Shown piece after piece: positions 1,148-64,000 of a stretch of DNA of 64,000 nt (position 1 is the first letter of the stretch; the number at the start of each line of letters is the position of its first letter). Source of the DNA: an uncultured bacterium (GTDB lineage Bacteria > Armatimonadota > Abditibacteriia > Abditibacteriales > Abditibacteriaceae); contig CAWJLW010000006.1 of assembly GCA_963843795.1 (NCBI GenBank), forward strand, positions 2,802,375-2,866,374, given 5' to 3'. The notes below the pieces were generated by a model. It was not told the origin of the DNA and did no database searches. It saw nothing but the letters and a program-made list of their open reading frames with translations. The translations under genes and the position numbers were made by a program.

Positions 1148-2578
1148 ATGAACGAATATACGCGCGAAAAAAAATGTGCTGTCATTGGTTTGGCGCGCGC
1201 TGGTGTGCCAACCGCGCGCTTTTTGGTCGAACGCGGCAATCGCGTGGTCGGCTACGATCACAAAACACGCGAACAATTATCGCCCGAAGCGCTTGATTTG
1301 GAAAATTTGGGCGTTAAGCTGCAACTGGGCGAACACGAATTCGCCGGCATTTTAAGCTGCCATCTTATCGTGCTTTCGCCCGGTGTGCGCATTCATCACG
1401 AACCGTTGGCGAGCGTATTAGAAAAAGCGCGTGCGCGTGGTACGGAAATTATCGGCGAAATGGAACTCGCCGCGCGACATTGTCCGGCTCCGATGATCGC
1501 TGTTACTGGCACCAAAGGCAAAAGCACAACGGTAAAGCTCATTACCGAGTTGTTACAAGCCTGCGGGCAAAGAGCTTTGCGCGCGGGCAACACCGGCACG
1601 CCACTAATCGCAGAATTGCCGCAACTTTCGCCTGAAAGTTGGGCGGTGGTCGAGGTTTCGAGCTTTCAATTTGAACGCGCGCCGACTTTCAAACCTCGCA
1701 TCGCAATTTTGCTCAATTTGCTGCCCGACCATCAGGATTATCACACTTCGCTCGAACAGTATTGGCAAACCAAACTGCGCATTTTCGCGCACCAGAAAAC
1801 TGGCGATACCACAATTTGCAATCTGGATGACGCGCAAACGTTGAGCGCTATCGAAAGCAAGACCATCGGCGGCGACGGCAAATTTCTCGGCGTTTCGGGA
1901 CGCGAACTGCCGCAATTGAATGGCGAGAAAATCGACGGCGCGGGCGTGCACAACAGCATGTTGGGCTGGATCAACGCAGGTGAATGGACGCCATTGATGG
2001 CTAATGAAGAAATTGCCTTGCGCGGCGAGCATAATCGCGCTAATGTCGCGGCGGCTATTTGCGCGCTCATCGCGGCTCTGGGCAGCACGCAAGTACTTGC
2101 CCAACGCGAAACAATTGTAAGAACCATTCGCGAGTTCCAAAGTTTGCCGCATCGACTGGAATTTGTGGCAGAACGGAACGGTGTGCGCTGGATCAACGAT
2201 TCGCAGGCCACAATTCCCGACGCTGCCATCGCCGCATTGAACGCGTTTGAAGCGCCGATTGCGCTCATCGCGGGTGGTAAAAACAAGCTCGATGATCCGA
2301 CAGCTTACGACGCTTTGGGCCGCGCGGTTGCCGAACGTGCCGCGCACTTGTTCTGTATCGGCGAAACCGCGCCGATTTTAGCTCGAGCCGCGCGCGAGGC
2401 GGGCATGAACGAGGAGAAAATCGTTGAAGCGGGCACCTTACAAAATGCAGTGCGCGAGGCGAATGACCGGATGCAAAGCGGCACGGTCGTGATGTCGCCC
2501 GCGTGCGCATCGTTCGATCAATTCAAATCGTTTGAAGATCGCGGCGAGCAGTTCCGGCGCGCGGTTGAGGAATTATAA
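1148..2578 (+). CDS. murD: UDP-N-acetylmuramoyl-L-alanine--D-glutamate ligase
   Basis: GLARAG N-terminus, VTGTKGKSTT P-loop, EVSSFQ, PHRLE, SPACASFDQF..FEDRG; dcw context. Confidence 0.96.
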   Translation: MNEYTREKKCAVIGLARAGVPTARFLVERGNRVVGYDHKTREQLSPEALDLENLGVKLQLGEHEFAGILSCHLIVLSPGVRIHHEPLASVLEKARARGTEIIGEMELAARHCPAPMIAVTGTKGKSTTVKLITELLQACGQRALRAGNTGTPLIAELPQLSPESWAVVEVSSFQFERAPTFKPRIAILLNLLPDHQDYHTSLEQYWQTKLRIFAHQKTGDTTICNLDDAQTLSAIESKTIGGDGKFLGVSGRELPQLNGEKIDGAGVHNSMLGWINAGEWTPLMANEEIALRGEHNRANVAAAICALIAALGSTQVLAQRETIVRTIREFQSLPHRLEFVAERNGVRWINDSQATIPDAAIAALNAFEAPIALIAGGKNKLDDPTAYDALGRAVAERAAHLFCIGETAPILARAAREAGMNEEKIVEAGTLQNAVREANDRMQSGTVVMSPACASFDQFKSFEDRGEQFRRAVEEL

Positions 2579-2720
2579 GGAGCTGCAGATATTTGTATGG
2601 TTTTTGAAATTACCAGGCAGGGACTTGCAGCTTGCCACTTATAATATCGACACTAACAGCTTCATTGTTTTAACATCAAAGCCGATTCATCACAGCCCCC
2701 ATTGCAGCACAGGAGACACC

Positions 2721-4409: not shown

Positions 4410-4430
4410 GATAATCTGCAAGTACTTGCC

Positions 4431-5309: not shown

Positions 5310-5419
5310 AAGAAAGAGGAAAGAAAACTCTCGTCTTTTGTAAACTTCCCCGCAAGTACTTGCAGTATCAATTCTTTCCTTAGTTCTTTCCTGCCCCTAA
5401 CATCTCCTCTCTGAATTTT

Positions 5420-6424: not shown

Positions 6425-6429
6425 CGCTC

Positions 6430-11569: not shown

Positions 11570-12142
11570 GTTGGCTCCTGAGTAAGACCACCCGCTTATG
11601 CCTTAACTTCATTTTATTAATTAGATAAGGTTGAAATACCATATTGGGTTCAACCTTTGATTTCGTTCCCGTGCGCTGTCACGGTGTCTGGCGTAAGTGC
11701 CGGAATTTTCAATTGTTTAAGACAAAACGGATTTAATTTATGATGAAAACGGTTCAAGTCGCGGTCGTAATTGCAAAGAAAAAGCCGAATGACAACTTTT
11801 CCTCATGCGATGTCCACAAAAGAATTCTTTGCAGAACAGTGACTTGATACATGAGGAAAGCTTGAGAAAAATCTGTTCCGAGAGTTCGATAATTGGCCGT
11901 ATCACGCTTGCAAACAGTTGCACATGATTTGCCAATTAAGCGCTTCCCCTGAAAAATTCCAGCCGCTAACTTGTCCTTATCTCACAAATCGAGATGAAGC
12001 TTGAAATCTCATCATGTGTGTCATATGTGTCATAAAGTCCACTGCAAGTACTTGCAGCGGGCAAAGATTTCGACACATGATTTAAAATGTCCTGCAAGTA
12101 CTTGCAGGACAGTCTTTGTGTGCTGCAAATGATTTGATTTTT

Positions 12143-13318
12143 ATGCACGAATTGAAAATTCTCGTTACCGGCGGCGGCAGCAGCGGGCACATTTCGCCCG
12201 CGCTGGCGATTATCGACGCCATTCAAAACTTCAATGCAACCGATTGGACGCCGCGTTTTTTGTATGTCGGCGGCAAGCGCGGCTTAGAAGGCGAACTGGT
12301 CAAACGCGCGGGCGTGCCGTTTGTCGGCGTGGAAACTGGAAAATTGCGGCGTTATCTTTCGCGCGAGAACTTTACCGATATGGCGCGCGTGCCGGTCGGC
12401 GTCGTGCAAGCGATGCGACATGTGCGCAATTTCGCGCCCGATGTGGTTCTGGCGACCGGCGGTTATGTGGCTGTGCCGCCGGTTCTGGCGGCAGCCGTGC
12501 GGCGCGTGCCGATTGTGACGCACGAGCAAACCGTGCAAATCGGGCTGGCCAATCGCATCAACGCGCGTTTCGCCGCGCGCATCGGTTTGTCATTCGAAAG
12601 CGCCTTGCAAGAATTGCCACCGAAGCAGCGCCCTAAAGCGTTCGTGGTCGGCAATCCGGTGCGCGCGCAGATTTTCGGCGGCGACAAAAAGCGCGCGGTC
12701 GAATATTGCGGTTTTGATACTGCAGACGATAACTTACCGACAATTTACGTGACCGGCGGCAGCCAGGGCGCGCGCATTTTGAATCTCGCGGTCGAGGAAG
12801 TTTTGCCACAGTTGCTCGAAGTCGTGCGCGTGGTTCATCAGTGCGGACAGCAACCGGCGAATGATGAACAGGATTTCGACCGGCTCGAACGCGCTTCAGA
12901 AAAGCTCGATGCCCGCTTGCGCAAGCGTTACTTCCTGACGCGTTTTGTGCGCGATGAAATTAACGATGTTTTTGCCTTAGCCGATTTGGTCGTCGGGCGC
13001 GCCGGAGCCGGAACCGTCACCGAATTGTGCGCGCTGGGCAAACCCGCGTTGTATGTTCCGCTCGTGCCAACTGGTGGCGACGAACAAACGCGCAACGCGC
13101 AGATGTGTGCCCAAATCGGCGCGGCACAAATCATCAAACAAAGCGAATTTGGTGGCACGCGTTTGCTGGAAGCGGTGCAAGTACTTGCAGCCGACAAAAC
13201 GCGCTTGCAAGAGATGGGCGCCTCAGCTTTGACGCTGGCCAAACCCAACGCGGCGCACGATATGGCGCGCACGGTTGTCGAACTGGGCTTGCAACATCGC
13301 AATCGCAAAAAAACGTGA
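12143..13318 (+). CDS. murG: Lipid II GlcNAc transferase MurG
   Basis: TGGGSSGHISP, TGGYV, HEQ, GNPVR, GGSQGA, RAGAGT and QTRNA motifs; start re-assigned to ATG 12143. Confidence 0.96.
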   Translation: MHELKILVTGGGSSGHISPALAIIDAIQNFNATDWTPRFLYVGGKRGLEGELVKRAGVPFVGVETGKLRRYLSRENFTDMARVPVGVVQAMRHVRNFAPDVVLATGGYVAVPPVLAAAVRRVPIVTHEQTVQIGLANRINARFAARIGLSFESALQELPPKQRPKAFVVGNPVRAQIFGGDKKRAVEYCGFDTADDNLPTIYVTGGSQGARILNLAVEEVLPQLLEVVRVVHQCGQQPANDEQDFDRLERASEKLDARLRKRYFLTRFVRDEINDVFALADLVVGRAGAGTVTELCALGKPALYVPLVPTGGDEQTRNAQMCAQIGAAQIIKQSEFGGTRLLEAVQVLAADKTRLQEMGASALTLAKPNAAHDMARTVVELGLQHRNRKKT

Positions 13319-13394
13319 GGCGCGCACTTCGATGGAATGCGCGTTGCAAGTACTTGCGCCGGTTCTGCCGCAGGTTTGGGCAAAGGAATAAATT

Positions 13395-14554: not shown

Positions 14555-16036
14555 ATGAAAAATTCTCTCTATGCCGCCATTGATTTGGGCGCCGAATCTG
14601 GGCGCGTCATTCGCGGCGCGTTCGATGGCGAAAAGTTGCAACTCGATGTGCTGAATCGTTTCGCCAATACGCCAGTGCAAACTTTGGGCACGCTGCAATG
14701 GGATATTTTGCGTTTGTGGAACGATATTCAAGACGGATTGAGCCAACTCGCTACGAACGATGCCGAAGAATTGAAAAGCATCGGCGTCGATACGTGGGGC
14801 GTCGATTTCGGTTTATTGGACGAACGCGACCAGTTGCTGGGCAATCCGGTTCATTATCGCGACGCGCGCCACACGGGCATGATGGAATTGGCCGTCGAAC
14901 GCATCGGCGGTGAAAAGTTATTTGCGCGCACTGGCTTGCAACTAATGCCGTTCAACACCCTATTTCAATTGCTGGCTTTGAAAGAAAAAGCATCGCCGCA
15001 ATTAGAAATCGCGCGCAGTTTGTTGTTCACGCCCGATTTGCTGCATTTCTGGCTCAGCGGCGAGAAAAAAAGCGAATATTCCATCGCCTCGACTTCGCAA
15101 ATGCTGAGCGTTCAAGCGCGCGATTGGGACAGAGAATTGTTGAGCGAACTCGATTTGCCGCTGCAAGTACTTGCGCCCATCGTCGCGCCCGGCAGCGAAT
15201 TGGGAAATTTGCATCCGAGCGTGGTTAAACGCATCGGATTGAAAGCGCATACAAAAATCGTCGTGCCCGCCAGCCACGACACGGCTTCGGCGGTTTTGGC
15301 CGTGCCCGCGCAAGGCGAAAACTGGGCGTATTTGTCGAGCGGAACGTGGAGTTTGATGGGCATCGAAATTCCCCAACCGCTTTTGGACGAACGCGTGCGC
15401 GAATGGAATTTTACTAACGAGGGCGGCGTCGGCAACACAATTCGCTTGCTAAAAAACATTGCTGGATTGTGGCTGGTTCAGGGCTGCAGGCGTTCGTTTA
15501 TCAAAAGCGGCCACGATTTTTCCTATTCGGCGCTCACCGAAATGGCCACCAAGTCTGCGCCACTGCAAAGCCTTGTCGAACCCGACGATTCAACTTTCGC
15601 TGCGCCCGACGACATGGCGCAAGCAATTCGCAACTGGTGCCAGAAAACCGCTCAAAAAGTGCCGGAAAGCGAAGGCGAATTGGTGCGCTGTTGCTTGGAA
15701 TCATTGGCGCTGAAATATCGTTGGACACTGGAGCGGTTGGAACAACTGCGCGGGCATCGTATCGACACCTTGCATATCGTCGGCGGTGGCGTGCAAAACG
15801 AACTGCTGTGCCAACTGACCGCCGATTGCTTGCAAAGAACTGTCGTCGCTGGCCCGATTGAAGCGACCGCAGCTGGCAACGTTCTCACGCAAATGCTGGG
15901 CTTGGGCGCAATCGAAAACATCGCGCAAGCGCGCGCAATCGTGCGCCATTCGTTCGAACTCAAAACCTACGAACCGGTTGCAAGTACTTGCGATGCATGG
16001 GACGCAGCTTATGCGCGTTTTGAAAGTTGGCTGTGA
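14555..16036 (+). CDS. rhaB: Rhamnulokinase-family FGGY sugar kinase
   Basis: AIDLGAESGR, IGVDTWGVDF, HDTASAV, SSGTWSL, FTNEGG, KNIAGLW, EATAAGN; substrate not certain. Confidence 0.85.
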   Translation: MKNSLYAAIDLGAESGRVIRGAFDGEKLQLDVLNRFANTPVQTLGTLQWDILRLWNDIQDGLSQLATNDAEELKSIGVDTWGVDFGLLDERDQLLGNPVHYRDARHTGMMELAVERIGGEKLFARTGLQLMPFNTLFQLLALKEKASPQLEIARSLLFTPDLLHFWLSGEKKSEYSIASTSQMLSVQARDWDRELLSELDLPLQVLAPIVAPGSELGNLHPSVVKRIGLKAHTKIVVPASHDTASAVLAVPAQGENWAYLSSGTWSLMGIEIPQPLLDERVREWNFTNEGGVGNTIRLLKNIAGLWLVQGCRRSFIKSGHDFSYSALTEMATKSAPLQSLVEPDDSTFAAPDDMAQAIRNWCQKTAQKVPESEGELVRCCLESLALKYRWTLERLEQLRGHRIDTLHIVGGGVQNELLCQLTADCLQRTVVAGPIEATAAGNVLTQMLGLGAIENIAQARAIVRHSFELKTYEPVASTCDAWDAAYARFESWL

Positions 16037-16616: not shown

Positions 16617-16630
16617 CCGTTCAGAAATGC

Positions 16631-16668: not shown

Positions 16669-16696
16669 TATATGCAAGTACTTGCAGACTGTGTTT

Positions 16697-18051: not shown

Positions 18052-18103
18052 AATTTTCCTAATTTGGTTGCAATTTGATTCGGCAAGTACTTGCGGGGCG
18101 ATT

Positions 18104-18679: not shown

Positions 18680-18728
18680 AGAATGGGTTTCACGTCGCCC
18701 TGCAAGTACTTGCCGCATCGTTTGAACT

Positions 18729-20978
18729 TTATTGAATGCCGTCGCGCGACCAGCGGTTCCACAGTTGGCCGCTGTCCAAACCCAACACGTTCACAAAAGC
18801 AGTGTCGGGCGGCACATCGCGTCCGATTTGGCGCAGAATATTTAAAACCGCTTCGTTGCCCCAGTGCGCGACAATGTAATCTAAAATCGAATTGGCCTGT
18901 GAATAGGCCAAGAATGCACGTTCGCCATCGACGTTCCATTCGCGCATCGCCGCCATCGATAGCAGCCGCTTGGCTTCGCGCGCATCGCGCACGCGTTGCA
19001 AATAGCCGTCGTAACCGCCTTCGACCAGCGTCGCAATTCCCTCATTAAACCAGACCGGAACATTGCGCCCGTTCGAAATCTGACGCACAGCGACGTGACC
19101 GTATTCGTGAGCCAGCGTGCCAAAAGTTGCCTGACGCAAACGATCATCGACAAAAGCATTGACTTCTTCGCCCAAAACCAAAGGCCCGCGTTCGGTCGCG
19201 ATAAGTTTGGTAAGGGTTAAAGCCGCGACAAATTCGCTGCTGCCCTGCGAAGAAAAGCGCGTGGTATAAGATTGAAATTCTGCCTGCGTGCGCCACAAAA
19301 CCACTTCGGTCGTGCCCATCGGAATTCCAAAATCGGTGTAAACCGTGTGCTGTGCTGCTTCGAGAGCTGCCAGTAGCGGTAACGCGCTGACATCATCTAA
19401 GCGGCAGCGCACGGTGAACAATTGCGAGCGAATCAGGTTCGGAGGCTTAATCGGCGCGAGTTCGCGGCGCTGGTCGAGATGATCGGACAAAACTTGAACC
19501 CACGCTGCATCATCGGCACTCATGCGCGCGAAAGCGCCCTGTCGTAGCAAAATGCGCGATTGTTCGAGATAGCGCGCGGCGGTGTCGTCGTCGCCAAGTT
19601 TGGAAAATTCCATGCCCAGTCGCAGCGCGCGCAGCGGCGTCGGCGCCAGCTTTTGTTCGCGATTGAGCGCGCTAATGACAAAAGTCGGATGATCGGCGAC
19701 CAAGCCAACTTTGGCTTCCTTGCTCAATTGCGTGCGCGCGCGGTTGGCCGGATCGAGCGGACGGCGCTCTTCAGCCGCCGCCAACCTGCGCGCATCGACT
19801 CGGTTGGGTTCGAGCCACGCGACTTTTTGATATTCGTCCGCAGCCTCATCGAAAACGCCGCCGGCTTCCAATGCGCGCGCGAAATCGAGGTGCGCGGTCG
19901 GGCTGTCGAAAGCCTGCGGGCTTTGATTAATCGCTTCGCGCAACATCAGCGCGCGCGCGGCAATTTCCGGGCTTTCATCCAAAGGTGCGGGCTTGTCGAT
20001 TTCCATCGGCTGCGCATCGCTGAGATGCGGTTCCCACACTCCATCCAGCCCAACCCAGTTGCGCGCGCCCGGCTGTAACAACAAGTGCAGCGTGCCACCC
20101 GCGCTATCACCGCTTTTGCTGCGCGCCATTAATTGCGACAAAATCCACGCGCGCACGGCACTATCACCTTCCGAAGCACTGGCTGCGGGCACGCCGGTCG
20201 GCGAAGCGATCCCGTTTTGGGCGCTCTCACGCCGTGCAAGTACTTGCGACGACAAAACGCGACCATTCCAGCGCGAACGCCGCAACGCAATCCAGCGTCC
20301 GCCGCGTCGCTCGACAACCAAGTGCAAAAGGACTTCGTCGGGTCGTGCATTAGGGTTGGCCGCGCTGCTAAGTTCGTCCCATTCATCGCGCGCCGTCGAA
20401 GCTAAAATTTGCAGCGCATCGAAAGTCGCGTCGGCCACGCTCCACGTCGTGCCGCTCAGGTTCCAGCTTCCATCGCGCTCGCGCTGGAGCGCAATGTCCT
20501 GCGCGCCGGTTTTTAATAACTGCGCCGTGCGCTGGCCCGTGCGCGCCATATCAACCGTAACGCCGCTAATTTCCAAGTTCTGGCGCGCTAAGGCATGATC
20601 ACCACGAATCGACAAACGCCGCAAACGCAAACGCGCGGAAAGCGAAACATAGCGGGCGGGCGGTTGCAAACCCACGATTTGCAGAGCGTTGGCATCCAAC
20701 GCATTAACCGCCGCTTCCAAGCGTCCCAGCGTCGATTCAATCGCCGCCGCATCGTTTTGGGGCGCAATTTGAGGTAGCACAACCTGCGGCGCGGGCGCGA
20801 GATTGGGCGGGATATCTGGCGTTTCCGAAGCGGGAAAATCGCCGGAAGACTCAATTTTCTGCGCGGTTCGCGGCGGCGGTAAATTCGGCGAAACCGGAAA
20901 TTGTGGTAAGCCGTTCTGAGCGTGAGCGGCGCTAGCGCCCAGCGACCAAACAAGCGCGATTAGGAGCGGATATTTCAT
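18729..20978 (-). CDS. Secreted protein with TPR-like region and C-terminal peptidase MA-like (gluzincin) domain
   Basis: Signal peptide ending AHA; HEYGH followed by PVWFNEGIA. Confidence 0.7.
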   Translation of the reverse strand: MKYPLLIALVWSLGASAAHAQNGLPQFPVSPNLPPPRTAQKIESSGDFPASETPDIPPNLAPAPQVVLPQIAPQNDAAAIESTLGRLEAAVNALDANALQIVGLQPPARYVSLSARLRLRRLSIRGDHALARQNLEISGVTVDMARTGQRTAQLLKTGAQDIALQRERDGSWNLSGTTWSVADATFDALQILASTARDEWDELSSAANPNARPDEVLLHLVVERRGGRWIALRRSRWNGRVLSSQVLARRESAQNGIASPTGVPAASASEGDSAVRAWILSQLMARSKSGDSAGGTLHLLLQPGARNWVGLDGVWEPHLSDAQPMEIDKPAPLDESPEIAARALMLREAINQSPQAFDSPTAHLDFARALEAGGVFDEAADEYQKVAWLEPNRVDARRLAAAEERRPLDPANRARTQLSKEAKVGLVADHPTFVISALNREQKLAPTPLRALRLGMEFSKLGDDDTAARYLEQSRILLRQGAFARMSADDAAWVQVLSDHLDQRRELAPIKPPNLIRSQLFTVRCRLDDVSALPLLAALEAAQHTVYTDFGIPMGTTEVVLWRTQAEFQSYTTRFSSQGSSEFVAALTLTKLIATERGPLVLGEEVNAFVDDRLRQATFGTLAHEYGHVAVRQISNGRNVPVWFNEGIATLVEGGYDGYLQRVRDAREAKRLLSMAAMREWNVDGERAFLAYSQANSILDYIVAHWGNEAVLNILRQIGRDVPPDTAFVNVLGLDSGQLWNRWSRDGIQ

Positions 20979-21036
20979 GAAGAAAAGAAATTATGATCTC
21001 GAAAATGTGCGCGGCAAGTACTTGCCGTGCACATTT

Positions 21037-22803: not shown

Positions 22804-22845
22804 CACAAACCGCGCCCTGCAAGTACTTGCAGGGCGCGGTTTGTG
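22804..22845. terminator. Perfect 42-bp inverted repeat centred on the iterated palindrome; probable rpmG terminator
   Basis: CACAAACCGCGCCCTGCAAGT|ACTTGCAGGGCGCGGTTTGTG, 18 bp after the rpmG stop. Confidence 0.75.
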
Positions 22846-25351: not shown

Positions 25352-25395
25352 ATTTTGGTGACATATGACGCTGCAAGTACTTGCAGCGCGCGATT

Positions 25396-26937: not shown

Positions 26938-26973
26938 GGAGCGATGCAAAACGCCCTGCAAGTACTTGCAGGG

Positions 26974-35100: not shown

Positions 35101-37764
35101 CTGCGCCAGCTCCAATTTGAGCTGATTATCCCCGGGCGACAGCGTCAGCAAATTCTGATATTCGCCAATGGCTTCATCGACTTGACGTGCGTAATACAGA
35201 TTGCGCGCCAAACCCAGCCGCGCTTCCAAATTGTCGGGTTTGACCTTGAGTGCAGCGCGATACAGCTCGACCGCTTCAGCATATTTCTTGCGCAGCGACA
35301 ACAGTTCTCCACTGCCGGCCAACGCCTGTGCGTTGTTTGGATCGGTTTTAAGTACTGCGGCCAATTCGCTTTCTGCGCTGTTGAGCGCATCGTTCGTTCC
35401 CTGACGACTCAGAATTTTAGCCAGCAACACGCGGGCCGGAACGCTTTGAGGCGTGCGCTCCAATACATAATTCAACTGTTCCTGTGCCGCAGGTAATTTC
35501 TGCTGCCACGTCAACACTTCGGCCAGATGAACGCGCGCGTTGAGATCGTTAGGATTGTTTGCGATGAACTGCTCGTATAATGTCGTGGCGGCCACAAAAT
35601 CGCCGCTATCACGCACCGCGTCGATAACTTGCAACGCTTGCGCAGGATCGGCGGGTAAATTACGAGCCAGACTTTCCACGATGCGGCGTGCAGCGGGCGC
35701 ATTGCCCGCATCCAACAGCGCGCTCGCCAGTTGCAGCGCATCAGCGGGTGTTTCAGGCACGCTGTTTTCTAGAGGGCGCGCAAGGGCAATCGCGCGCTCT
35801 TTATTACCCAAACGATTTTCAACGACAACTTGCAAAATGCGAGCGCGCTGATTGCCCGGTTCGCGTTGCAACGCTTTTTCAATTACGTCGCGCGCCGCGC
35901 CAATTTCGCCCTGCCCAATCAACAACTGCGCGTAATTTACGCTCAACTCACCACTTTGCGGAGCCAGCTCAATCGCGCGTTCGAACGCCGCGCGCGCTTC
36001 GTTCAAATTCCCGTCCTGATCTTCCAAATAACCGATTTGCGCCAGAGTTTGAGCTTGATCGACTGGCGACTTTTGACGCGCCAGCAAAGCGCGATACGTT
36101 TCCAGAGCGGCCTGATTATTGGCGCCCGGAGAGCCATTACGTCCGGCTTGCGCGATGGCCAGCAAACGCAAGGCTTCATCGCTAGCGGGCTGATTGCGCA
36201 CGGCGCGCTGCAATTCCGACAGCGCTTGCTCGTAGCGGCGCGCGAACACCAGTGCGCGTCCCAAGCCCAAACGCGCCGGAACGCTGTTGCCGTCGATGGC
36301 CAGTGCCGCCTGATAAGCGGGCACGGCTTCCGAAGGTTGCTGCACATAAGTCAGCACATCGCCCAATCCAATTTGCGCTTCCAGATTCTTGGGATCAAGC
36401 GCAAGTACTTGCCGATACGCGGTTGCGGCCTCGTCGTATTCGCCGTTCCACGCCAGCAAATTGGCCAGCGCCAGTCGCGCGCGTATGCTGTTGGGCGCCA
36501 GTTGCAAAGCGCGTGTGAGAGCGCCACGCGCGGTTTCGCCTTCGCCCTGATACGTCAAGGCTTCGCCCCATTCCGTCCACACTTCACCGTTGTTGGGCTG
36601 CGCTGTGAGCGCGCGTCGATAATAAGGCGCAGCTTCAGCTTCGCGCTTGCCCCATGTCAGCAGCTGCGCCAGACGATAGTTGGCCGTGAAGTCGCGAGGA
36701 TTGGCAGCGACCAGAGAGCGAAAAGTTTTTTCTGCACCCGCAAAATCGCTGCGAATAATTTGCACTTCGCCCAGATTGCGCAACGCGGCGCTATCTTTGG
36801 GCTGTGCGGATAAAACTTTTTGATAAGCGGTGGCGGCTTCAGCGTAACGATTCATCGAAAACAACGAATCAGCCACACCTTTTTGCGCACGCACATCTTT
36901 AGGGTTGTAATTCAGAGCGCGCTGATAATAAGTCAATGCCGCGCCGGAATTATTTTCATCCAGCGCCTTACCGGCTTCGATAATTTGAATTTCGCCCAGA
37001 TTGCGTAGCGCCTTGACATCTTTGGGCTGCGCCAGCAGAATACGACGATAAGCGGTTTCGGCTTCGGCGTAGCGCTTCAAAATCAACAGAGCATCGGCCA
37101 AACCACTTTGCGCATAGGGATTATTGGGATCAATCGCCAAAGCGCTTTTATAAAAAGTGAGTGCCGCAGTGGCGTTGCCCGCCTCAAGCGCCTTGCCCGC
37201 TTTCTCAACCCAAGGCCACGCTTTGGCCTGTTGCGTTTTGGAAACTGTGGGCGCGCGCTTAATAATTGGAAGCGCGCGCGCTGGAGCGCCAGTTGCGACT
37301 TTAACCGGCGTTTGGGGCGCACTGGGCGGCGCACTAACAGCTTTGGCAGCGCGAGCGTTGGCGGCGTTGGCGGCCAGCGCCTGGCCGGCGCTGGCTTGTA
37401 CTCGCAGTGTTACCGCTTTTTCTCCCAGCTCGCTGATGGGCGCAGCCGCTTTAACGACAACAGGCGCTTTTCCGGCCACTGCTTCCACACCAGAATTCGA
37501 CTCGACAGTCGTGTCGGTGGCCGCAGCAAATTTGGGTGCATTTTGGGCGGCTATGTTTTCCTGAGCGCGCGCGATTTCGGGCTGCGCGACCAGCGCAAGC
37601 GGCATAGCAAACGCAGCCACAACAGCAGCGCGCAACAAGGCGGCGCGCGCGCCGTGACTGCCAACTCCCTTGCTATCGAAACGCTCTTGGCGCTCGATCA
37701 GCAAGCGCGGCGCGCCAGGACGAAATTTGTGATAACGAGACGAGGGAATGCTCATAACTTCCAT
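32149..37764 (-). CDS. Very large TPR-repeat protein with C-terminal outer-membrane beta-barrel-like domain (BcsC/PgaA-like)
   Basis: Signal-like region ending ARA-Q; dozens of TPR units; last ~280 aa amphipathic beta strands with YSDSN.R and YYTPQSY, terminal Phe; exact start uncertain (37764 or 37755). Confidence 0.8.
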   Translation of the reverse strand: MEVMSIPSSRYHKFRPGAPRLLIERQERFDSKGVGSHGARAALLRAAVVAAFAMPLALVAQPEIARAQENIAAQNAPKFAAATDTTVESNSGVEAVAGKAPVVVKAAAPISELGEKAVTLRVQASAGQALAANAANARAAKAVSAPPSAPQTPVKVATGAPARALPIIKRAPTVSKTQQAKAWPWVEKAGKALEAGNATAALTFYKSALAIDPNNPYAQSGLADALLILKRYAEAETAYRRILLAQPKDVKALRNLGEIQIIEAGKALDENNSGAALTYYQRALNYNPKDVRAQKGVADSLFSMNRYAEAATAYQKVLSAQPKDSAALRNLGEVQIIRSDFAGAEKTFRSLVAANPRDFTANYRLAQLLTWGKREAEAAPYYRRALTAQPNNGEVWTEWGEALTYQGEGETARGALTRALQLAPNSIRARLALANLLAWNGEYDEAATAYRQVLALDPKNLEAQIGLGDVLTYVQQPSEAVPAYQAALAIDGNSVPARLGLGRALVFARRYEQALSELQRAVRNQPASDEALRLLAIAQAGRNGSPGANNQAALETYRALLARQKSPVDQAQTLAQIGYLEDQDGNLNEARAAFERAIELAPQSGELSVNYAQLLIGQGEIGAARDVIEKALQREPGNQRARILQVVVENRLGNKERAIALARPLENSVPETPADALQLASALLDAGNAPAARRIVESLARNLPADPAQALQVIDAVRDSGDFVAATTLYEQFIANNPNDLNARVHLAEVLTWQQKLPAAQEQLNYVLERTPQSVPARVLLAKILSRQGTNDALNSAESELAAVLKTDPNNAQALAGSGELLSLRKKYAEAVELYRAALKVKPDNLEARLGLARNLYYARQVDEAIGEYQNLLTLSPGDNQLKLELAQVYLDRNRLSDAEALFKQVVAARRAILPPLVGGKVAFKANANLAATLGAPFRPNARRDNVLQSSPQVLAPQLQHTALRLAQATVPPANGDSSLVPQALNVESGTDDQQVLALRGLGEIRRRQGRFDEAVDYFQSALALDSTSVGARLGLAQALRGQQKFVLALEETDRVLGIAPENLSARILKAQLLSDVGRKDDSQTALNALATDLDNGKPSVEDYQIVSSAFASVDNYDAALQLLAVAQQRYPGEAVLQRAQAEILLAARRYPEATAAYDALLQADPQDTDALLGRARVFNYSDALADAETAYRRVLAQEADNSQATVELADILSRRGNYRESVALYRSALEKTPDDSKSRLELARVLRYSENYDDSLTELNTILVGDTRNAEALTERGILRGQRGQYQEGLADLKRALEIAPQSLTAQFGLAEVQSYAGQYDESIANYRAALARDPQNIKGRTELGLALSYAGRYPEALNELDAVVAAAPQNVNAQIGRASVLARARRIDESIAIYNTILKSDAGNVRARQGLAEALVYGRRYPEAIETYDALVASAPENSAYGVARARTLGYARRTDEAINALRPIVRAEPDNVEARLALAEILTNSGRDKGRGEAIDIYRAVLEAQPNNARARTGLGRVLSYEGRYKESRAELNQVLASSPQDVEALYALAETQRFSGGFFDSRDTYNRVLRLDPANDNAREGLRLANRETLSLLTVAGRRYSDSNGVRVTGISAGPTFVTRSGTFGFSAETGRFKDDNVSLRRQAFNVLLAKQIGPVAARLVLTRLNYDGAPDKNLYDLNLGRTVNSRQRYFVGASKLDVFESAGAVLAGITAQQYRAGIDLPIARQFDLEARLARYKYSDSNTRTTAGASLYYRLQQNAPTLRVGLGYVRDNTKFFSPLYYTPQSYGALSVLADYVVATGRARYGIFGQHPLTNSVGANGENRTADTLFGYYNYDASDLLELFLNGGLVRSSNFRSNDITAGATLRF

Positions 37765-39225: not shown

Positions 39226-39326
39226 ATCGGCTCCTCGCTGACTGGCTTTTCTCAAACTTCTTTGGGTAACACCACACCGCAAGTACTTGCAGCGCGATTT
39301 CAGGCTCTGCAAGTACTTGCCTGCGT

Positions 39327-43200: not shown

Positions 43201-43240
43201 GTAAAAACCGCCCTGCAAGTACTTGCAGGGCGGTTTTTAC
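43201..43240. terminator. Perfect 40-bp inverted repeat centred on the iterated palindrome
   Basis: GTAAAAACCGCCCTGCAAGT|ACTTGCAGGGCGGTTTTTAC with T-tracts on both strands, downstream of the response regulator. Confidence 0.8.
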
Positions 43241-44669: not shown

Positions 44670-44762
44670 AAAACTCCTTTTTCCCGTTGTTGAAACCCAA
44701 AATGTCCCGCAAGTAACTTGCGGCAAGTACTTGCACTGCCTGCTATCAGCGCATCTGGCACG

Positions 44763-47517: not shown

Positions 47518-47572
47518 TTGGTCACAACTGATGATAAGATTTGGCTCTGCAAGTACTTGCAGAGCCAAAATT

Positions 47573-48328: not shown

Positions 48329-48391
48329 ATTTTCCTTTAAATTTGATTCTAACCGCCCTGCAAGTACTTGCAGGGCGGTTATGAGTTTCTA

Positions 48392-49528: not shown

Positions 49529-49603
49529 AGTGTCCTTTTTATTTCGCGTCTTTGGCGCCTGGCAAGTACTTGCAGAGCGCTATTGTGCTGGCTTTATCGA
49601 GGG

Positions 49604-50117: not shown

Positions 50118-50196
50118 AATTCTCGACCTTTTAAGGGCAAACTCGGCAAGTATAGCGCTCGAAATGCCCTGCAAGTACTTGCAGGGCATTTCGTCT

Positions 50197-51815: not shown

Positions 51816-54047
51816 TCAACGCACGCGCGCTTTCCAACGCGGCGCGCTGCGTTCCTCGTCGAGCGCTTTCTGATTTTGTGCGAAAGCCAAAAAAGTCCAG
51901 TCGTTGGGCGGCAGGGTAAGATCAGCTTCAACGCGCAAACCGCGCACACGCGAAGGTAAAACCAGTTCGTGGCGCAAATCAAACGCATTTTCGGCCAGCG
52001 CTTGCACGCTTAAGGCCAATGAACGTGCGCGATTGGTCTGGTTGAACAACCCCACTAATAGTGTGCCGCGACTCGAAGCGCGCACCGCCACACGCACTCC
52101 GCGCGCGGAGTGATTATTCTTGACATCGCGTTCGCGCACTTGTACCAGAGCGGGTGCGAGATACGCGGCCAGAGCGCTTTCTAATTCCGCGCTTTGCTCG
52201 GCGGACGGTTGCTCGACAGCCGATAACGAATGCGGCAGCCAAACAATTTCGCCGCGCGCGCGTCCCAATTGCAAGTCGCCCGGTTTTGTCGATGGCACGA
52301 TTAAAACGCCAGCCGAATCGTCATCTAAAGTCGCGACTACACGCGGTGCGACGATTTCATCGCTGATTTTCTTGGGTTTAGGTGCATCGTCGGGCGCGGG
52401 CGTAACCGTTGGCGTGATGACCTGACTTTGCGCGACCGCGATTTTCTCGCCGCTTATCGTCCCAAAAACCCAGGGATCTCGCGGCGTTAGCAGCGCCTGG
52501 CGCGGGTCAATCGCGCGCGATTTCGCCAACAACAATTTTTCCCACGACGCGCGTAGAGGCGACGCATCAGCGCCCGAAAACGGATTGCCGACGAGCAAAA
52601 CGCGATTGCCGCGTTCTACAGCTTCGCGTATCGCTTGCAACGTCGTTTCAGGCTCGCCAGATTGCACCGCAACGGCGAACGATTCACCCTGACTACGATT
52701 TTTGTTGTTGGAATCGGTGGAACGATTGCGTTTCGCCTCGCTTGGCGTACGCGCCAGCAAAGGCACGCGGCCCAACGCGCGCCAATTCTCGAACAAATTC
52801 AGCCCGCCAACGGGCGCATTGTCAGCGTTCCAAGGCGGCATCCACAAACCACTATCTTCCAAAGTCACGCTGCCAACCAGCAGATTGATATTGGCCGCAA
52901 ATAAATCGCGCGCCGCATCATCGGTTTGCGCGGGCGCTGCAAGTACTTGCAGCGCGTCATCAGCCGCCACAATTCCAGTCGCACCGCTGAGCAAAGCTTG
53001 CCACCACAACGTTTGTGGTGCGTTTGCGCTTACCTGCGCCCAGATAGGCAGATCGTAATTGTCGCTTTCCTCTGCGACGCGACGCGCGGCTTTGAGCGGC
53101 CACAAACTTAATTCATCATTCGAAATCGCCACGGTCACCGCATCGGCGTCCGGAGCCAATCGGTCGATTAAGCGCGCTGCCATTGCAAAATTCGTATTGC
53201 TGGTAACTGAAGTTTCAATGTGCAAAAACAGCGCGGCTTCGGGCGTCACGTTTTGAATCGCCGCGCGCGCCAAACGCCATTGCTGTTCCCAACGATTGAT
53301 ATCCGATTCGGCTTTCAGATTGGCCGCATCAATCACCAAATTCCAGCCCAACAAATCGTGTTGATTGGCCACGCGCGCGGCATTGGCAGCATCGCGCAGG
53401 CGCGCGCGCAAGGCGGCGGCATCGAGATCGGGAGGCACGTTCACTGGCACTGGTAAGGTTTGAAATCTGAGCGGTGTTGGCGTCGAAATTTGCGTGTCGT
53501 TGCGGTCGGCGCGCCTTAAACCTGACAAAAACAATTTGCCTGGAATTTTGCTATTTGTCGGCGAAACTTCGTTCGCACCGCGCGCGAAAATCGCCGTGCC
53601 GTTGAGCAAACGCCAACCGGCCTGACGTTCCAAACCGCTGACGACCAGCGGCGCGGCTTGCGTCAAAGGCGTGCGCGCTTTGTCATCGGTCAACAAACGC
53701 CATTGATAACGCCCCGGCTCGGCATCGACGCGCAGTTCGATTTGAGCGTGCCCGTTGACAATTGAAAGCGAACGCCGCACATCGGCCACACGCGCGTCGC
53801 GTCCGGCTTCAAACAAGCCGATGCGCACGCGCTGTGGCGGCACGATGCCAGGCGCCAAACGCAAAACCACAGTTCCGTCACCGCCACTCAAAGTTGCGGG
53901 CACGGCTTCGAGAACAGGTAACTTTTTAGGAGGCGCAATCGGCGCTGTGGGCGCGGAATTTTGCGCGCGCGCGAATGGTAACGCGCTGCAAGTACTTGCA
54001 ACGGCCAAAAGCGCGATAGAAGCGCGGTAAAGAAAGGAGAATTTCAT
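51816..54047 (-). CDS. Secreted hypothetical protein
   Basis: Long ORF with signal peptide ending ARA-Q; no motif recognised. Confidence 0.65.
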   Translation of the reverse strand: MKFSFLYRASIALLAVASTCSALPFARAQNSAPTAPIAPPKKLPVLEAVPATLSGGDGTVVLRLAPGIVPPQRVRIGLFEAGRDARVADVRRSLSIVNGHAQIELRVDAEPGRYQWRLLTDDKARTPLTQAAPLVVSGLERQAGWRLLNGTAIFARGANEVSPTNSKIPGKLFLSGLRRADRNDTQISTPTPLRFQTLPVPVNVPPDLDAAALRARLRDAANAARVANQHDLLGWNLVIDAANLKAESDINRWEQQWRLARAAIQNVTPEAALFLHIETSVTSNTNFAMAARLIDRLAPDADAVTVAISNDELSLWPLKAARRVAEESDNYDLPIWAQVSANAPQTLWWQALLSGATGIVAADDALQVLAAPAQTDDAARDLFAANINLLVGSVTLEDSGLWMPPWNADNAPVGGLNLFENWRALGRVPLLARTPSEAKRNRSTDSNNKNRSQGESFAVAVQSGEPETTLQAIREAVERGNRVLLVGNPFSGADASPLRASWEKLLLAKSRAIDPRQALLTPRDPWVFGTISGEKIAVAQSQVITPTVTPAPDDAPKPKKISDEIVAPRVVATLDDDSAGVLIVPSTKPGDLQLGRARGEIVWLPHSLSAVEQPSAEQSAELESALAAYLAPALVQVRERDVKNNHSARGVRVAVRASSRGTLLVGLFNQTNRARSLALSVQALAENAFDLRHELVLPSRVRGLRVEADLTLPPNDWTFLAFAQNQKALDEERSAPRWKARVR

Positions 54048-54112: not shown

Positions 54113-54156
54113 ACGACAAAAAGGCGCTGCAAGTACTTGCAGCGCCTTTTTGTCGT
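54113..54156. terminator. Perfect 44-bp inverted repeat centred on the iterated palindrome
   Basis: ACGACAAAAAGGCGCTGCAAGT|ACTTGCAGCGCCTTTTTGTCGT, 5 bp from the deacetylase stop. Confidence 0.8.
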
Positions 54157-55911: not shown

Positions 55912-56010
55912 AAAACTCATAAAAACAAGTTTTGAAACGCATTTCGCGAAGATTGCTGTTGCAAGTACTTGCAGGGCACGAAAACGCTAAACTGCGTGTC
56001 TCAACTTCTT

Positions 56011-56847: not shown

Positions 56848-56933
56848 AACGGCGCGGCAAATACTTTATATCATCAAATACTTGATGCAAGTACTTGCCA
56901 AGCGAATTTAGGCGCGCACGAGGAGAAAATTTT

Positions 56934-57701: not shown

Positions 57702-57756
57702 ATTTATCTCAATCAAGCGCTGCAAGTACTTGCAGCGCTTGATTTGTGTTGGAATT

Positions 57757-58491: not shown

Positions 58492-58529
58492 GAAAAAGCG
58501 CGCTGCAAGTACTTGCAGCGCGCTTTTTC
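58492..58529. terminator. Perfect 38-bp inverted repeat centred on the iterated palindrome between convergent genes
   Basis: GAAAAAGCGCGCTGCAAGT|ACTTGCAGCGCGCTTTTTC. Confidence 0.82.
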
Positions 58530-61821: not shown

Positions 61822-62760
61822 TTAAGCATTCATCAGCAGACCCGCGCCACTTTCCAACAACTGCCGCGCGGCTTTTTGGCCGATAATCTGTGCGCCATCT
61901 GCCAAGGCGCCCGCAACTTCTGCGCTTAATTTTTGGCTGCCGTCGGGCGCTAAAACGACCGCGTGCAAGGTGCAAATTTCGCCTTTTACTTGCGCATATG
62001 CGCCCAAGGGCGTCGAGCAACCGGCTTGCAACGCTTCCATGCAGGCGCGTTCGGTTTCGACACAAAAGCGCGCGCTTTCATTTTCCAACCCTGCAAGTAC
62101 TTGCAGCACATTTTGATCGTCGCAGCGCGCTTCCAAAGCCAGCGCGCCCTGTCCGGGCGCGGGCACGAAATTTTGGCAATTGAAATCAAAATGCTGATGT
62201 TGCGATAAATCAATGCCAAGCCGGTTCAAGCCCGCGCGCGCCAGCAGAATCGCATCGAAACTTTCATCCAATTTGCGTAATCGAGTGTCGATGTTGCCAC
62301 GCACAGAAGAAACTTTTAAGTCGGGGCGCTGATATTTCAATTGTGCCGCGCGGCGCAAACTCGAAGTGCCTACGCGCGCACTGTGCGGCAATTGCGACCA
62401 TACAGTTTCGTTTTCCCGATCGTCCAAATCGCGGCGCAAAATGCAAGCATCGGCAGGATTTTCGCGACCGGGCACGCACGCCAGACACAAATTTTCGGGG
62501 AAAAGCGGTGGCAAATCTTTCAGGGAATGGACGGCAAAATCAATCTCGCCACTTAAAAGCGCTTGCTCGATTTCTAGCGTAAAAACGCCTTTTCCGCCAA
62601 TTTCCGGCAGGGGTTGTCCTTGCTGCTTATCGCCCGTGGTGCGAATGATAATTTCTTCGATCCGCAAATCGGGTGTCAACTGTTCCAATGCGCGTGCGGT
62701 CTGCCGAGCCTGCGCCAAAGCCAAGGCGCTGCCCCGTGTACCCATTTTCAAGATCGTCAT
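61822..62760 (-). CDS. hemC: Hydroxymethylbilane synthase
   Basis: GTRGSALA, GGKGVFT, AVHSLKD, GTSSLRR, RGNIDTR and PAPGQG. Confidence 0.97.
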   Translation of the reverse strand: MTILKMGTRGSALALAQARQTARALEQLTPDLRIEEIIIRTTGDKQQGQPLPEIGGKGVFTLEIEQALLSGEIDFAVHSLKDLPPLFPENLCLACVPGRENPADACILRRDLDDRENETVWSQLPHSARVGTSSLRRAAQLKYQRPDLKVSSVRGNIDTRLRKLDESFDAILLARAGLNRLGIDLSQHQHFDFNCQNFVPAPGQGALALEARCDDQNVLQVLAGLENESARFCVETERACMEALQAGCSTPLGAYAQVKGEICTLHAVVLAPDGSQKLSAEVAGALADGAQIIGQKAARQLLESGAGLLMNA

Positions 62761-62775: not shown

Positions 62776-63639
62776 TTACTGTCCGATGAGATGTGGCGCA
62801 CCCAGAAACGAAATCACCATCAGCAAAAAGCCATAAACGACGACTAAATTGGTGCGACGCCCGCGCCAGCCCAGCCACCAGCGCGCCACCAGATAAAGGG
62901 CAAAAGTTGCCCAGGTGAGGCCAGAAAATAACACTTTCGGGTCGCTCCATACCCGATATTGCGCCTGATGACGTACTTGCCACACGACGCCTAAAAACAA
63001 ACCCAGCGTTAAAAGCGCCAAACCGAACGCCGTGGCGCGATAAATCACATCGTCGGCGACTTGCAGCGAAGGCAGGCGCTGCCACAAACCGCGCAGTTGC
63101 TTGCGTTTCAATAAATGATCTTGAATCAGATAAATCAAACTCGCCGCAAAAGCGAACGCCAAAGCAACATAACCGGCCACGATCAAGACGACGTGAACTA
63201 CTAACCATTGCGTTTCCAATCCGCTCGGATTGGGCGCGTAGCGATGAAGGGGCGCAGCGGTAAGCGAATATAACGCCGCCAAAAGTGCGACCGGTGTGAC
63301 GAACGCGCCCAAAGTGGTTTGCCCGACGCGTTGCCGCCAGCCCAGATACGCCACGATAAGAGCGCAGCCAAAAACGCCAGCGACGCCCGCTTTTTCGCGC
63401 CACAACAATGCACCTTGCCCGAACATCGCCAATGTGTGTAAATTGGCCCCACAAAACAAAAGCGCAAGGGAACCGATTTCAACGATTTCGTGCCACGCGC
63501 GGCCATGTTCGCGCGGCTCATCCGAGCGTAAAAACAAATGCGCCCATAACAAAAGCATTGCCACAAAATAGCACGCGACCGCGCCCAAAAGTAGCACGCC
63601 TTCCCACGCGGCCAATGCATTGGGAGCACCATTTCTCAT
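62776..63639 (-). CDS. Cytochrome c assembly family membrane protein (CcsA/HemX-like)
   Basis: Multi-TM; WLVVH, LPSL, W.DPK and GWRGRR; between hemA and hemC; ATGA overlap with the hemA stop. Confidence 0.88.
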   Translation of the reverse strand: MRNGAPNALAAWEGVLLLGAVACYFVAMLLLWAHLFLRSDEPREHGRAWHEIVEIGSLALLFCGANLHTLAMFGQGALLWREKAGVAGVFGCALIVAYLGWRQRVGQTTLGAFVTPVALLAALYSLTAAPLHRYAPNPSGLETQWLVVHVVLIVAGYVALAFAFAASLIYLIQDHLLKRKQLRGLWQRLPSLQVADDVIYRATAFGLALLTLGLFLGVVWQVRHQAQYRVWSDPKVLFSGLTWATFALYLVARWWLGWRGRRTNLVVVYGFLLMVISFLGAPHLIGQ

Positions 63640-64000
63640 CGTGCCCCCTCGGGAGCAACCGATTGAGTTGCGCTGCTTTCTTTTTCGTTTTTGGGCGCGC
63701 TGCAAGTACTTGCAGCGCTGTTTGGGAAGGTTTCTAAATCGAAAGCGCGGCGCAAAGCTTCGACATCTTCGGGCTGCGAATCGGCGGCTTCGCGCAAATG
63801 ACGCAGCGGTGCGTGCATCAATTTTCCGCTCACCGAACGCGCCAGAGCGCGCACGATTTGCTGATCGCGCGGTGACAAATGTTGCAACTGTGCTAGCGCG
63901 ATCTCGGTTTCGCGGTCGCGCACTTCATTGGCGTGACGCGCCAAAGCTGACAAAACTGGCTGCGCGCCGCGACCTTTTATCCACTGTGCCCAGCTACGCG
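63636..64000 (-). CDS. hemA: Glutamyl-tRNA reductase, C-terminal part (truncated by window edge)
   Basis: Dimerisation-domain pattern E.E.AL..L....KLMHAP...LR; hemA-X-C order. Confidence 0.8.
   Translation of the reverse strand, partial: RSWAQWIKGRGAQPVLSALARHANEVRDRETEIALAQLQHLSPRDQQIVRALARSVSGKLMHAPLRHLREAADSQPEDVEALRRAFDLETFPNSAASTCSAPKNEKESSATQSVAPEGAR

Follow-up and report, generated by a model that had tools for sequence, protein, structure and literature searches.

Introduction

Hyper-abundant genome words, such as the DNA uptake sequences (DUS) of Neisseriaceae, the uptake signal sequences (USS) of Pasteurellaceae and the palindrome HIP1 of cyanobacteria, are few, and their origin is argued between drive, selection and repair bias. 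We describe here such a word, the 12 bp palindrome GCAAGTACTTGC, in the genome of an uncultured bacterium of the Abditibacteriaceae (G000). A first-pass annotation of one 64 kb stretch of this genome (G000:C6:2802375-2866374, the whole of which is referred to as the window) had remarked on the palindrome within genes, and we have followed it through the genome and its relatives.

Each of the described systems resembles the new word in some respects. DUS are reported as thousands of copies of a 10-12-base word, in dialects that have an invariant core and lineage-specific outer bases tracking phylogeny (Frye et al. 2013, PMC3630211), and as lying both within genes and in hairpins beyond gene ends, with about 55% of Neisseria terminators containing DUS (PMC1852404); copy number, dialect structure and placement within genes and in hairpins past gene ends are the same here. 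They differ in that DUS hairpins are made from inverted pairs, whereas here a single palindrome is the hairpin tip, and in that DUS function (a ComP receptor and a bias in uptake) has been shown by experiment, whereas the present word is known from sequence alone. Uptake sequences are described at poorly conserved residues with a strong frame bias, and USS as enriching particular peptides and accumulating after gene arrival (Findlay & Redfield 2009, PMC2817400). The new word behaves likewise in residue choice, frame bias and peptide enrichment, and may do so in accumulating after gene arrival, with the difference that peptide enrichment is given in that report as about two-fold, as against 15- to 36-fold here.

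HIP1 (GCGATCGC) is, like the new word, a perfect palindrome, found in genes and spacers about once per kb, replaced by other palindromes in some relatives and conserved in position between genomes, according to two reports (Elhai 2015, PMC4390886; Xu et al. 2018, PMC5861425). It is 8 bp long and GC-rich with a GATC centre, whereas the word described here is 12-16 bp long, has 50% G+C and is centred on AGTACT. One-base deviations from HIP1 are described as biased to its first and last base (PMC4390886), and a recent study reports that transformation is enhanced by HIP1 (bioRxiv 10.1101/2024.09.10.611283).

A 12 bp palindrome is spread throughout the genome

The window contains 41 copies of GCAAGTACTTGC, compared with an expectation of 0.00 from 100 dinucleotide-preserving shuffles, and every occurrence of the 10-mer CAAGTACTTG in the window belongs to one of these 41. 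The genome as a whole (4.30 Mb) carries 2,567 copies, so that the 12-mer recurs on average every 1.68 kb and the core AAGTACTT every 1.45 kb; the 16-mer form of the word is CTGCAAGTACTTGCAG. The exact word outnumbers its 36 one-mismatch variants pooled (506), and two-mismatch sequences (371) are barely enriched, with the reversed word, as a control, giving 0 exact, 17 one-mismatch and 213 two-mismatch occurrences. Copies are spread evenly along the main contig, C6 (31.7 +/- 5.1 per 50 kb), apart from a few windows of odd composition that contain none; this pattern fits slow accumulation across the whole genome. A literature search for GCAAGTACTTGC alone returned no paper; the other dialect words described below were searched only together with taxon names, which yielded papers on the taxa alone.

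Three 20-kb windows of C6 (60000-80000, 520000-540000 and 3600000-3620000) are free of the word, and two of them have an unusual G+C content (0.474 and 0.668). Some small contigs are likewise poor in the word, C3 carrying 0.07 copies/kb as against 0.63 on C6. The word-free windows and contig C3 probably represent DNA acquired recently or contigs binned in error.

The word occupies all three reading frames as a DNA-level signal

Genes were modelled from open reading frames (ORFs) with iterated codon scoring, giving 3,059 genes over 84.6% of the genome. The model assigns 1,393 copies to intergenic DNA and 1,043 to the interior of predicted genes, with 131 lying across a gene end, such that 1,524 of the 2,567 are non-coding or cross a gene end. 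The coding copies used here are a core set at least 150 nt from the predicted start and at least 60 nt from the stop; the 411 copies nearer to a gene end, many of which are artefacts of start calling, were excluded. The 632 core copies are read as QVLA (401), KYL (130) or ASTC (101).

The first-pass annotation had held that the palindrome is written into proteins in only two of three frames, QVLA and ASTC. As a description of the window this is accurate: the gene model used here gives the same 12 copies in credible genes and in the same frames (nine QVLA and three ASTC), with no KYL in a credible gene, the KYL calls at 32059, 39279 and 50171 occurring only in over-extended ORFs. As a rule for the genome it does not hold, and the KYL assignments were checked by both coding score and Pfam. 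Among copies lying 240 nt or more from either end of the gene, the called frame is, of the six, the open one with the highest score for 102 of 102 KYL, 301 of 301 QVLA and 68 of 69 ASTC copies. Among 24 KYL segments chosen at random, 15 match a Pfam family in the KYL frame and in 14 the domain spans the word, examples being a GHMP kinase, a class-V aminotransferase, an Asp/Glu racemase, aconitase and transketolase. With a KYL share of 21%, the chance of finding none among 12 copies is about 0.06, and we therefore regard the two-frame pattern of the window as a sampling effect.

As the first-pass annotation anticipated, the encoded peptides are strongly over-represented in gene cores and their spelling is far from background codon usage. 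QVLA occurs 461 times, compared with 30.9 expected from amino-acid frequencies (15-fold), and 409 of these (89%) have the exact spelling CAAGTACTTGC, a spelling that codon usage would give to 0.3%. For ASTC the count is 115 where 3.2 would be expected (36-fold), 101 of them exact (88%), and for KYL it is 268 where 93.5 would be expected, 170 of them spelled AAGTACTTG, as against an expected 4%. The codons of the word are rare ones (GTA accounts for 7.5% of Val and CTT for 8.6% of Leu), and QVLA not spelled by the word is found 52 times. GCAAGTACTTGC is thus a signal at the level of DNA and not a peptide.

The choice of frame is nonetheless set by the protein. A model using only amino-acid frequencies predicts shares of 10/73/17% for ASTC/QVLA/KYL in G000, where 16/63/21% are observed, and 59/26/14% for the equivalent QSTL/KVL[CW]/KYF frames in the related genome G001, where 75/9/16% are observed. 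A codon-level model predicts 75% (G000) and 66% (G001) for the KY frame and is wrong in both genomes. Frame use is therefore set by amino-acid acceptability and not by codon preference, and the earlier proposal that protein-level selection filters the copies is borne out.

Coding copies are written by substitution

The closest genome available for comparison, G001, belongs to the same genus and shares about 70% DNA identity with G000. Core sites were mapped onto 100 G001 contigs (562 kb) using tblastn high-scoring segment pairs of at least 45% identity that extend at least 8 residues to either side, which placed 63 of the 632; the evidence for substitution accordingly concerns coding copies, non-coding copies being mostly unalignable at this divergence. 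No gap falls within the codons of the word at 57 of the 63 sites. At the six gapped sites G000 is shorter in four and has extra residues in two, one with four residues and the other with two. Divergence from G001 is 5.96 of 12 nt at word sites compared with 4.18 in 4,424 control windows from the same alignments (p = 1e-7), showing that coding copies occupy less conserved positions. At the 41 ungapped QVLA sites G001 has V in 20 and L in 29, with Q and A in 8 each; where it differs at the Q and A positions it usually has K/E and S/R/G respectively. The prevalence of ungapped sites, the presence of V and L in G001 and the high divergence together indicate that substitution creates the word at sites that nearly match it and are under weak constraint, as has been reported for uptake sequences (PMC2817400).

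Origin by substitution and not by insertion had been suggested from the window alone, where the copies in core enzymes appeared to cause no disruption. Both suggestions are sustained: apart from the single four-residue gain among the mapped sites there is no insertion of the word's own length in protein, MurG, the FGGY kinase, the peptidase and HemC align with G001 without gaps at the word, the one window site compared that falls in a length difference (10 residues) being that of the poorly conserved 767-aa protein, and MurD, which lies outside the G001 sequence compared, has no G000-specific indel relative to 23 orthologues from the family. For MurD, a search for homologues returned sequences from many phyla with 31-39% identity, and 12 distant homologues had suggested a six-residue insertion beside the word; the 23 family orthologues show this to be a linker of variable length throughout the family, and the insertion was rejected. 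The one read run that contains this stretch, X1 (27% of the words), yields contigs of short length and low depth; 38 of 109 match at 99% or above and represent the same strain, and the rest derive from other organisms.

Relatives carry dialects of the word around a common core

In the 562 kb of G001 the core AAGTACTT is present 490 times and a different 12-mer, CAAAGTACTTTG, 208 times, whereas GCAAGTACTTGC is absent. The preferred reading frame flips with this change of dialect: QVLA accounts for 401 of 632 core copies in G000, whereas in the gene cores of G001 the exact word is read as QSTL in 59 of 79 cases, as KYF in 13 and as KVL[C/W] in 7. A third dialect, TCGAGTACTCGA, is present in G009, G015 and G038 at the loci read. 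The half-sites are therefore GCAAGT in G000 and CAAAGT or TCGAGT in relatives, with AGTACT as the common core.

Some sites are shared between genomes. At the 57 ungapped G000 sites, G001 has AAGTACTT in the identical position in 10 and AGTACT in 12, where about 0.04 would be expected by chance from the density of the word; all 12 shared AGTACT sites carry non-G000 flanks in G001, mostly of the CA… type, and the corresponding residues are KVLS, KVLC or KVLR in place of QVLA and GSTL in place of ASTC. Taken from G001 to G000, 12 of the 125 sites that align without gaps have the core in G000, eight of them as the exact G000 word. The codons of MurD illustrate the same behaviour over a greater distance, with ACG-CAA-GTA-CTT-GCC (QVLA) in G000 and CGA-GTA-CTC-GAT (RVLD, within TCGAGTACTCGA) in G009, G015 and G038, which belong to another genus. 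In these alignments the flanks at orthologous sites, and hence the encoded residues, follow the dialect of the lineage. The shared sites may be either old sites with retuned flanks or parallel hits on permissive xVLx codons.

A survey of 31 genomes of the class, with the reversed hexamer TCATGA as control, shows that AGTACT itself has sharply different fates. It is hyper-abundant in G000 (3,241 versus 626 for the control) and G001 (3,117 versus 569). Genus g6 is divided: AGTACT is equally prominent in four of its six genomes, G009, G012, G015 and G038 (2,813-4,733 versus 236-1,045), and low in the other two, G006 and G017 (175 and 166 versus 745 and 587). It is strongly avoided in genera g2 (1-126 versus 305-1,419), g5 (1-15 versus 654-1,172) and g7 (25 versus 920), and near neutral in two other families of the class. 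The longer core AAGTACTT is abundant only in G000 (2,965) and G001 (2,725). Five genomes of 4-6 Mb (G005, G008, G011, G035 and G036) have between one and five AGTACT each compared with 545-1,172 for the control, an avoidance that in our judgement goes far beyond that ordinarily caused by restriction. We know of no parallel among DUS to this near-purging of the core hexamer in sister genera, no search aimed at one having been made.

Several of these features are new: the flip of reading frame with dialect, the prediction of frame shares at the amino-acid level, the dialect-following residue changes at orthologous codons, and the contrast of enrichment and avoidance of AGTACT across one family. 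The dialects, the frame flip and the dialect-bound residues together show directly that a signal in the DNA can prevail over codon preference and over the identity of the amino acid alike, as far as the protein permits. One AGTACT core in three dialects, together with sister genera that avoid the hexamer, constitutes a natural experiment, and a reader of the word could be sought through whatever co-varies with the dialect.

A self-DNA mark is the favoured explanation

The behaviour of the word matches DUS/USS and HIP1 each in part, and by analogy it would best be placed as a DUS/USS-like or HIP1-like self-DNA word. The likeness to these systems drawn by the first-pass annotation thus stands as far as behaviour is concerned, and membership of any of these families is not established. 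On balance we favour an explanation in which GCAAGTACTTGC is a genome-wide word written into genes by substitution in all three frames, which has probably multiplied as a mark of self DNA that is read by a putative protein. We hold this explanation as a whole with moderate confidence, and the general account beneath it with considerable confidence. Such a reader would be dimeric, with the half-site GCAAGT (CAAAGT or TCGAGT in relatives), and would recognise the double-stranded palindrome as the cell's own DNA, thereby biasing which variants spread; by this bias thousands of near-matching sites would drift toward the exact word, and purifying selection would remove copies that damage proteins. 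The more specific proposal, that the reader confers a DUS/USS-like preference for self DNA in uptake or recombination, is tentative; G000 encodes ComEC, DprA and seq­uences with seven secretin matches above the cut-off. More speculative still, and in our estimation rather unlikely, is a system reading AGTACT across the whole family, in which some lineages became saturated with a 12 bp palindrome, shifts in the half-site bases (GCA, CAA, TCG) dragged the encoded residues with them, and sister genera purged the hexamer almost entirely, amounting to antagonistic marking of self and non-self DNA by a symmetric reader that evolves together with its word.

A number of observations weigh against this account or narrow it. 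The known DUS and USS are asymmetric, whereas GCAAGTACTTGC is a perfect palindrome, and codon preference is given as the best correlate of USS and DUS frame use (PMC2817400), whereas frame use here runs counter to it. The gene model is home-made, with the copies near predicted gene ends set aside, and G001 is 63% complete, with about 0.6 Mb compared. Alignment gaps are over-represented at the word: they fall inside its codons at 9.5% of mapped sites (6/63) compared with 4.1% of controls (p = 0.046), and within three residues of it at 25% (16/63) compared with 8.1% (p = 4e-5), so that a minority of copies could derive from small indels or the sites could lie in loops of variable length. The shared sites could also be parallel gains at pre-adapted xVLx codons and not inherited. 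The search for a driver named no reader protein. ComEC and DprA are near-universal, and their presence is consequently weak support for uptake.

A possible HIP1-like word without uptake

It is possible, if on the unlikely side, that the word is HIP1-like: a repair bias linked to methylation would create or maintain it, or it would be selected for a structural role in the chromosome or nucleoid, and uptake would not be involved. A perfect palindrome recurring about every 1.5-1.7 kb, within genes as well as between them, is near the density reported for HIP (PMC4390886), the occurrence of alternate words in relatives is as described in cyanobacteria (PMC4390886; PMC5861425), and conservation of sites between genomes far above chance is the same argument that has been made for HIP1 (PMC5861425). 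The near-purging of AGTACT in sister genera also suggests enzymes that act on the hexamer, and G000 encodes one N6/N4 methyltransferase (256 aa, DPPY motif), located among housekeeping genes with no recognisable endonuclease gene adjoining it.

Against this, full-length orthologues of the N6/N4 enzyme (56-75% identical) are present in 19 of 26 other genomes of the family, AGTACT-rich and AGTACT-poor alike, so that having the enzyme is not tied to having the word; searches of G000 and G001 revealed no C5 methyltransferase, and no cognate methyltransferase was identified for the word. Presence or absence of a methyltransferase was accordingly rejected as the driver. A search for the ScaI endonuclease family (PF09569) matched none of the 31 genomes, and since it matched no control genome either, it is uninformative. 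A specificity of 12-16 bp exceeds that of usual methyltransferase sites. The outer-base bias of variants that Elhai reports for HIP1 is also absent, with 110 of the 506 one-mismatch variants at positions 1 and 12 compared with 154 at positions 4 and 9. Finally, G000 shows no avoidance of AGTACT where the hexamer stands outside the word (ratio 1.25). An apparent five-fold depletion of GTAC in G000 was rejected as avoidance, as it held only against a zero-order expectation; the Markov ratio on word-masked DNA is 0.61, comparable to CATG (0.66) and GATC (0.47), which together with the AGTACT ratio argues that there is no restriction-type avoidance in G000. With HIP1 itself reported to raise transformation (bioRxiv 10.1101/2024.09.10.611283), this alternative and the self-DNA mark that we favour may merge.

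Other sequences are under-represented in word-masked G000 relative to Markov expectation, including GATC, CTAG (0.47) and AGATCT (0.35), which may reflect other restriction or repair pressures.

Non-coding copies and hairpins

Between genes the word is roughly ten times denser than in gene cores (1.4-3.1 per kb versus about 0.2 per kb), and there it could be taken primarily as the preferred tip of terminator or RNA-stabilising hairpins, with genic copies arising as a by-product, for example through copying between hairpins and genes. Copies are most frequent 20-40 nt beyond stop codons (628), compared with 311 at 0-20 nt and 212 at 40-60 nt. Gaps with at least one copy make up 65% of the convergent, 49% of the tandem and 42% of the divergent class. 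The non-coding consensus, aAAA.cGCgCT-word-AGcGCg.TTTT, has symmetrical arms, and mirrored arm positions co-vary well above the level expected from composition (for example 0.52 versus 0.27 at -7/+7). An A-run upstream together with a T-run downstream accompanies 47% of the copies in convergent gaps, and a T-run follows the copy in 30% (tandem) to 59% (convergent). Of 400 non-coding copies sampled, 42% fold at or below -15 kcal/mol over 36 nt, compared with 2% of random coding 36-mers.

We nevertheless consider it improbable that termination came first. At least 632 copies lie deep in genes with only weak CT/AG flanks, no conserved arms and no arm covariation, and divergent gaps are occupied too. 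A-runs and T-runs are equally frequent in tandem gaps (0.29 and 0.30), and the runs are therefore not tuned to the direction of transcription. A terminator scan over positions 1-20000 of the window flagged one of eight non-coding copies. Of the 29 such copies in the whole window, 18 consist of the bare word and 11 are long palindromes. A hairpin, moreover, needs no fixed 12-base tip, and a terminator role leaves the lineage-specific flanks at orthologous coding sites unexplained. Many non-coding copies cap structure-constrained hairpins, recalling the placement of uptake sequences in terminators (PMC1852404); the common unit is nonetheless the bare double-stranded word.

Mobile elements and peptide motifs

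Repetitive extragenic palindromic (REP) elements are extragenic, imperfect palindromes, and the gene for the associated transposase (RAYT) is flanked by them. Abundant palindromic hairpins between genes and near gene 3' ends are a property shared with the word described here, and the copies could be imagined as insertions of a tiny palindrome, similar to REP or to miniature inverted-repeat transposable elements, moved by a transposase. About a quarter of the intergenic copies (373 of 1,393) are perfect palindromes extended by at least 10 nt on each side (at least 32 nt), gaps near word sites are somewhat enriched, and G000 has one weak IS200/RAYT-like Y1 transposase ORF (140 aa, 31.8 bits, HVH motif, G000:C6:751935-752357). 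This explanation is very improbable, as the first-pass annotation had also inferred. The 373 long palindromes have 228 distinct arms and not one element sequence, the copies within genes are without arms and, at 57 of the 63 mapped sites, without gaps, the spread of the word over the chromosome is even, and the flanks switch in place between lineages. The RAYT-like gene is the only one of its kind and is flanked on both sides by inverted copies of a GGGCGGGTCGGAGACCCGC-type repeat bearing no relation to the AGTACT word, such that it was rejected as the driver; together with its repeat it may represent a small, separate REP-like system.

That QVLA and ASTC are selected as protein motifs, with DNA identity secondary, would account for their over-representation and can in effect be dismissed, since the codon data already refute it, QVLA outside the word numbers 52 against 30.9 expected, most copies are non-coding and the same DNA encodes three unrelated peptides.

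Directly upstream of the RAYT-like gene is an Eco57I-type restriction-modification methylase apparently split over three consecutive ORFs (358, 383 and 176 aa; G000:C6:748575-751655) and possibly the decayed remnant of a type IIG enzyme. Two of these ORFs contain the word, in the ASTC frame in the 358-aa ORF and in both the KYL and QVLA frames in the 383-aa ORF.

Copies within the window and consequences for annotation

All 41 copies in the window are listed in Table 1. The gene names given by the first-pass annotation are supported by Pfam for MurD, MurG, the peptidase, the TPR protein, HemC and HemA; that of rhaB is supported only to the level of the FGGY sugar kinase family. No orthologue of the TPR protein was found in the G001 sequence compared, and the 767-aa protein matches no Pfam family. 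Four copies (18702, 32059, 39279 and 50171) fall in codons 2-8 of over-extended ORFs, the first in the QVLA frame and the others in KYL; two of them, 32059 and 50171, are long perfect hairpins, and all four were therefore counted as non-coding.

Table 1. Copies of the palindrome in the window, with coding copies first. Extension is the number of nt by which the perfect palindrome continues on each side; MFE, minimum free energy.
Copy	Position	Gene (strand, coordinates)	Peptide	Remarks
MurD	2089..2100	+ 1148-2578	QVLA	Pfam; linker before C-terminal domain
MurG	13177..13188	+ 12116-13318	QVLA	Pfam; G001 KVLV spelled CAAAGTACTGGT, ungapped
FGGY sugar kinase	15163..15174	+ 14555-16036	QVLA	Pfam; G001 QLLL, ungapped
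FGGY kinase C-terminal tail	15980..15991		ASTC	residue 476/493; past FGGY_C end at residue 448; outside G001 cover
Peptidase_MA_2 protein	20236..20247	- 18729-20978	QVLA	Pfam; G001 ANLA, ungapped; indel further downstream
1,871-aa TPR protein	34772..34783	- 32149-37764	QVLA	Pfam
1,871-aa TPR protein	34898..34909	- 32149-37764	QVLA	Pfam
1,871-aa TPR protein	36401..36412	- 32149-37764	QVLA	Pfam
767-aa protein	52939..52950	- 51816-54119	QVLA	within 10-residue length difference to G001 (32% identical)
767-aa ORF, residue 41	53988..53999		ASTC	120 nt from predicted start
HemC	62093..62104	- 61822-62760	QVLA	Pfam; G001 ELLA (GCGAGCAATTCC, 4 differences), ungapped
HemA dimerisation C-terminal tail	63702..63713		ASTC	Pfam; residue 466/490
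Non-coding	1118..1129			bare word, perfect extension 2
Non-coding	4418..4429			bare word
Non-coding	5352..5363			bare word
Non-coding	12044..12055			upstream of murG, 50 nt from next copy
Non-coding	12094..12105			tip of 10-pair hairpin; sole terminator-scan match of 8 non-coding copies in 1-20000
Non-coding	13346..13357			bare word, 28 nt past murG stop
Non-coding	16674..16685			bare word
Non-coding	18083..18094			bare word
Codons 2-5 of over-extended TMEM175 ORF	18702..18713			probably upstream of true start; Pfam domain begins residue 18
Non-coding	21014..21025			strong imperfect hairpin, 48-nt MFE -28.4
Non-coding	22819..22830			perfect palindrome, +15 nt each side, MFE -38.1
Non-coding	25373..25384			extension 4
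Gene-end copy	26958..26969			extension 5, then T-run
Non-coding	30878..30889			extension 3
Hairpin	32059..32070			extension 10, A-run and T-run; KYL via over-extended PhoH ORF; G001 alignment ends before
Non-coding	32121..32132			bare word
Codon 8 of over-extended ORF	39279..39290			30 nt from next copy
Non-coding or partial	39309..39320
Non-coding	43215..43226			perfect palindrome, +14 nt, A-run and T-run, shape of a two-way terminator
Gene-end copy	44723..44734			degenerate near-copy gcaagtaacttgc, one extra base, directly before
Non-coding	47549..47560			extension 9
Non-coding	48360..48371			extension 10
Non-coding	49562..49573			imperfect hairpin, MFE -18.3
Hairpin	50171..50182			extension 11; KYL only via over-extended ORF
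Non-coding	54129..54140			perfect palindrome, +16 nt, A-run and T-run
Gene-end copy	55961..55972			bare word
Gene-end copy	56887..56898			bare word; gapped G001 alignment
Gene-end copy	57722..57733			extension 11
Non-coding	58505..58516			perfect palindrome, +13 nt, A-run and T-run

The word contains no stop codon in any frame, and gene callers that choose the longest ORF therefore extend gene starts upstream through it; 165 copies genome-wide lie within 30 nt of a predicted start. The word is likely to be a source of N-terminal mis-annotation in this genome, and for annotation more generally it raises the counts of QVLA, ASTC and KYL peptides and produces spurious extensions of ORFs at the start of genes.

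Copies also occur in close pairs, as at 12044-12105 (50 nt) and 39279-39320 (30 nt) in the window and also at 44706-44734, and spacings below 100 nt make up 6.4% of all those on C6.

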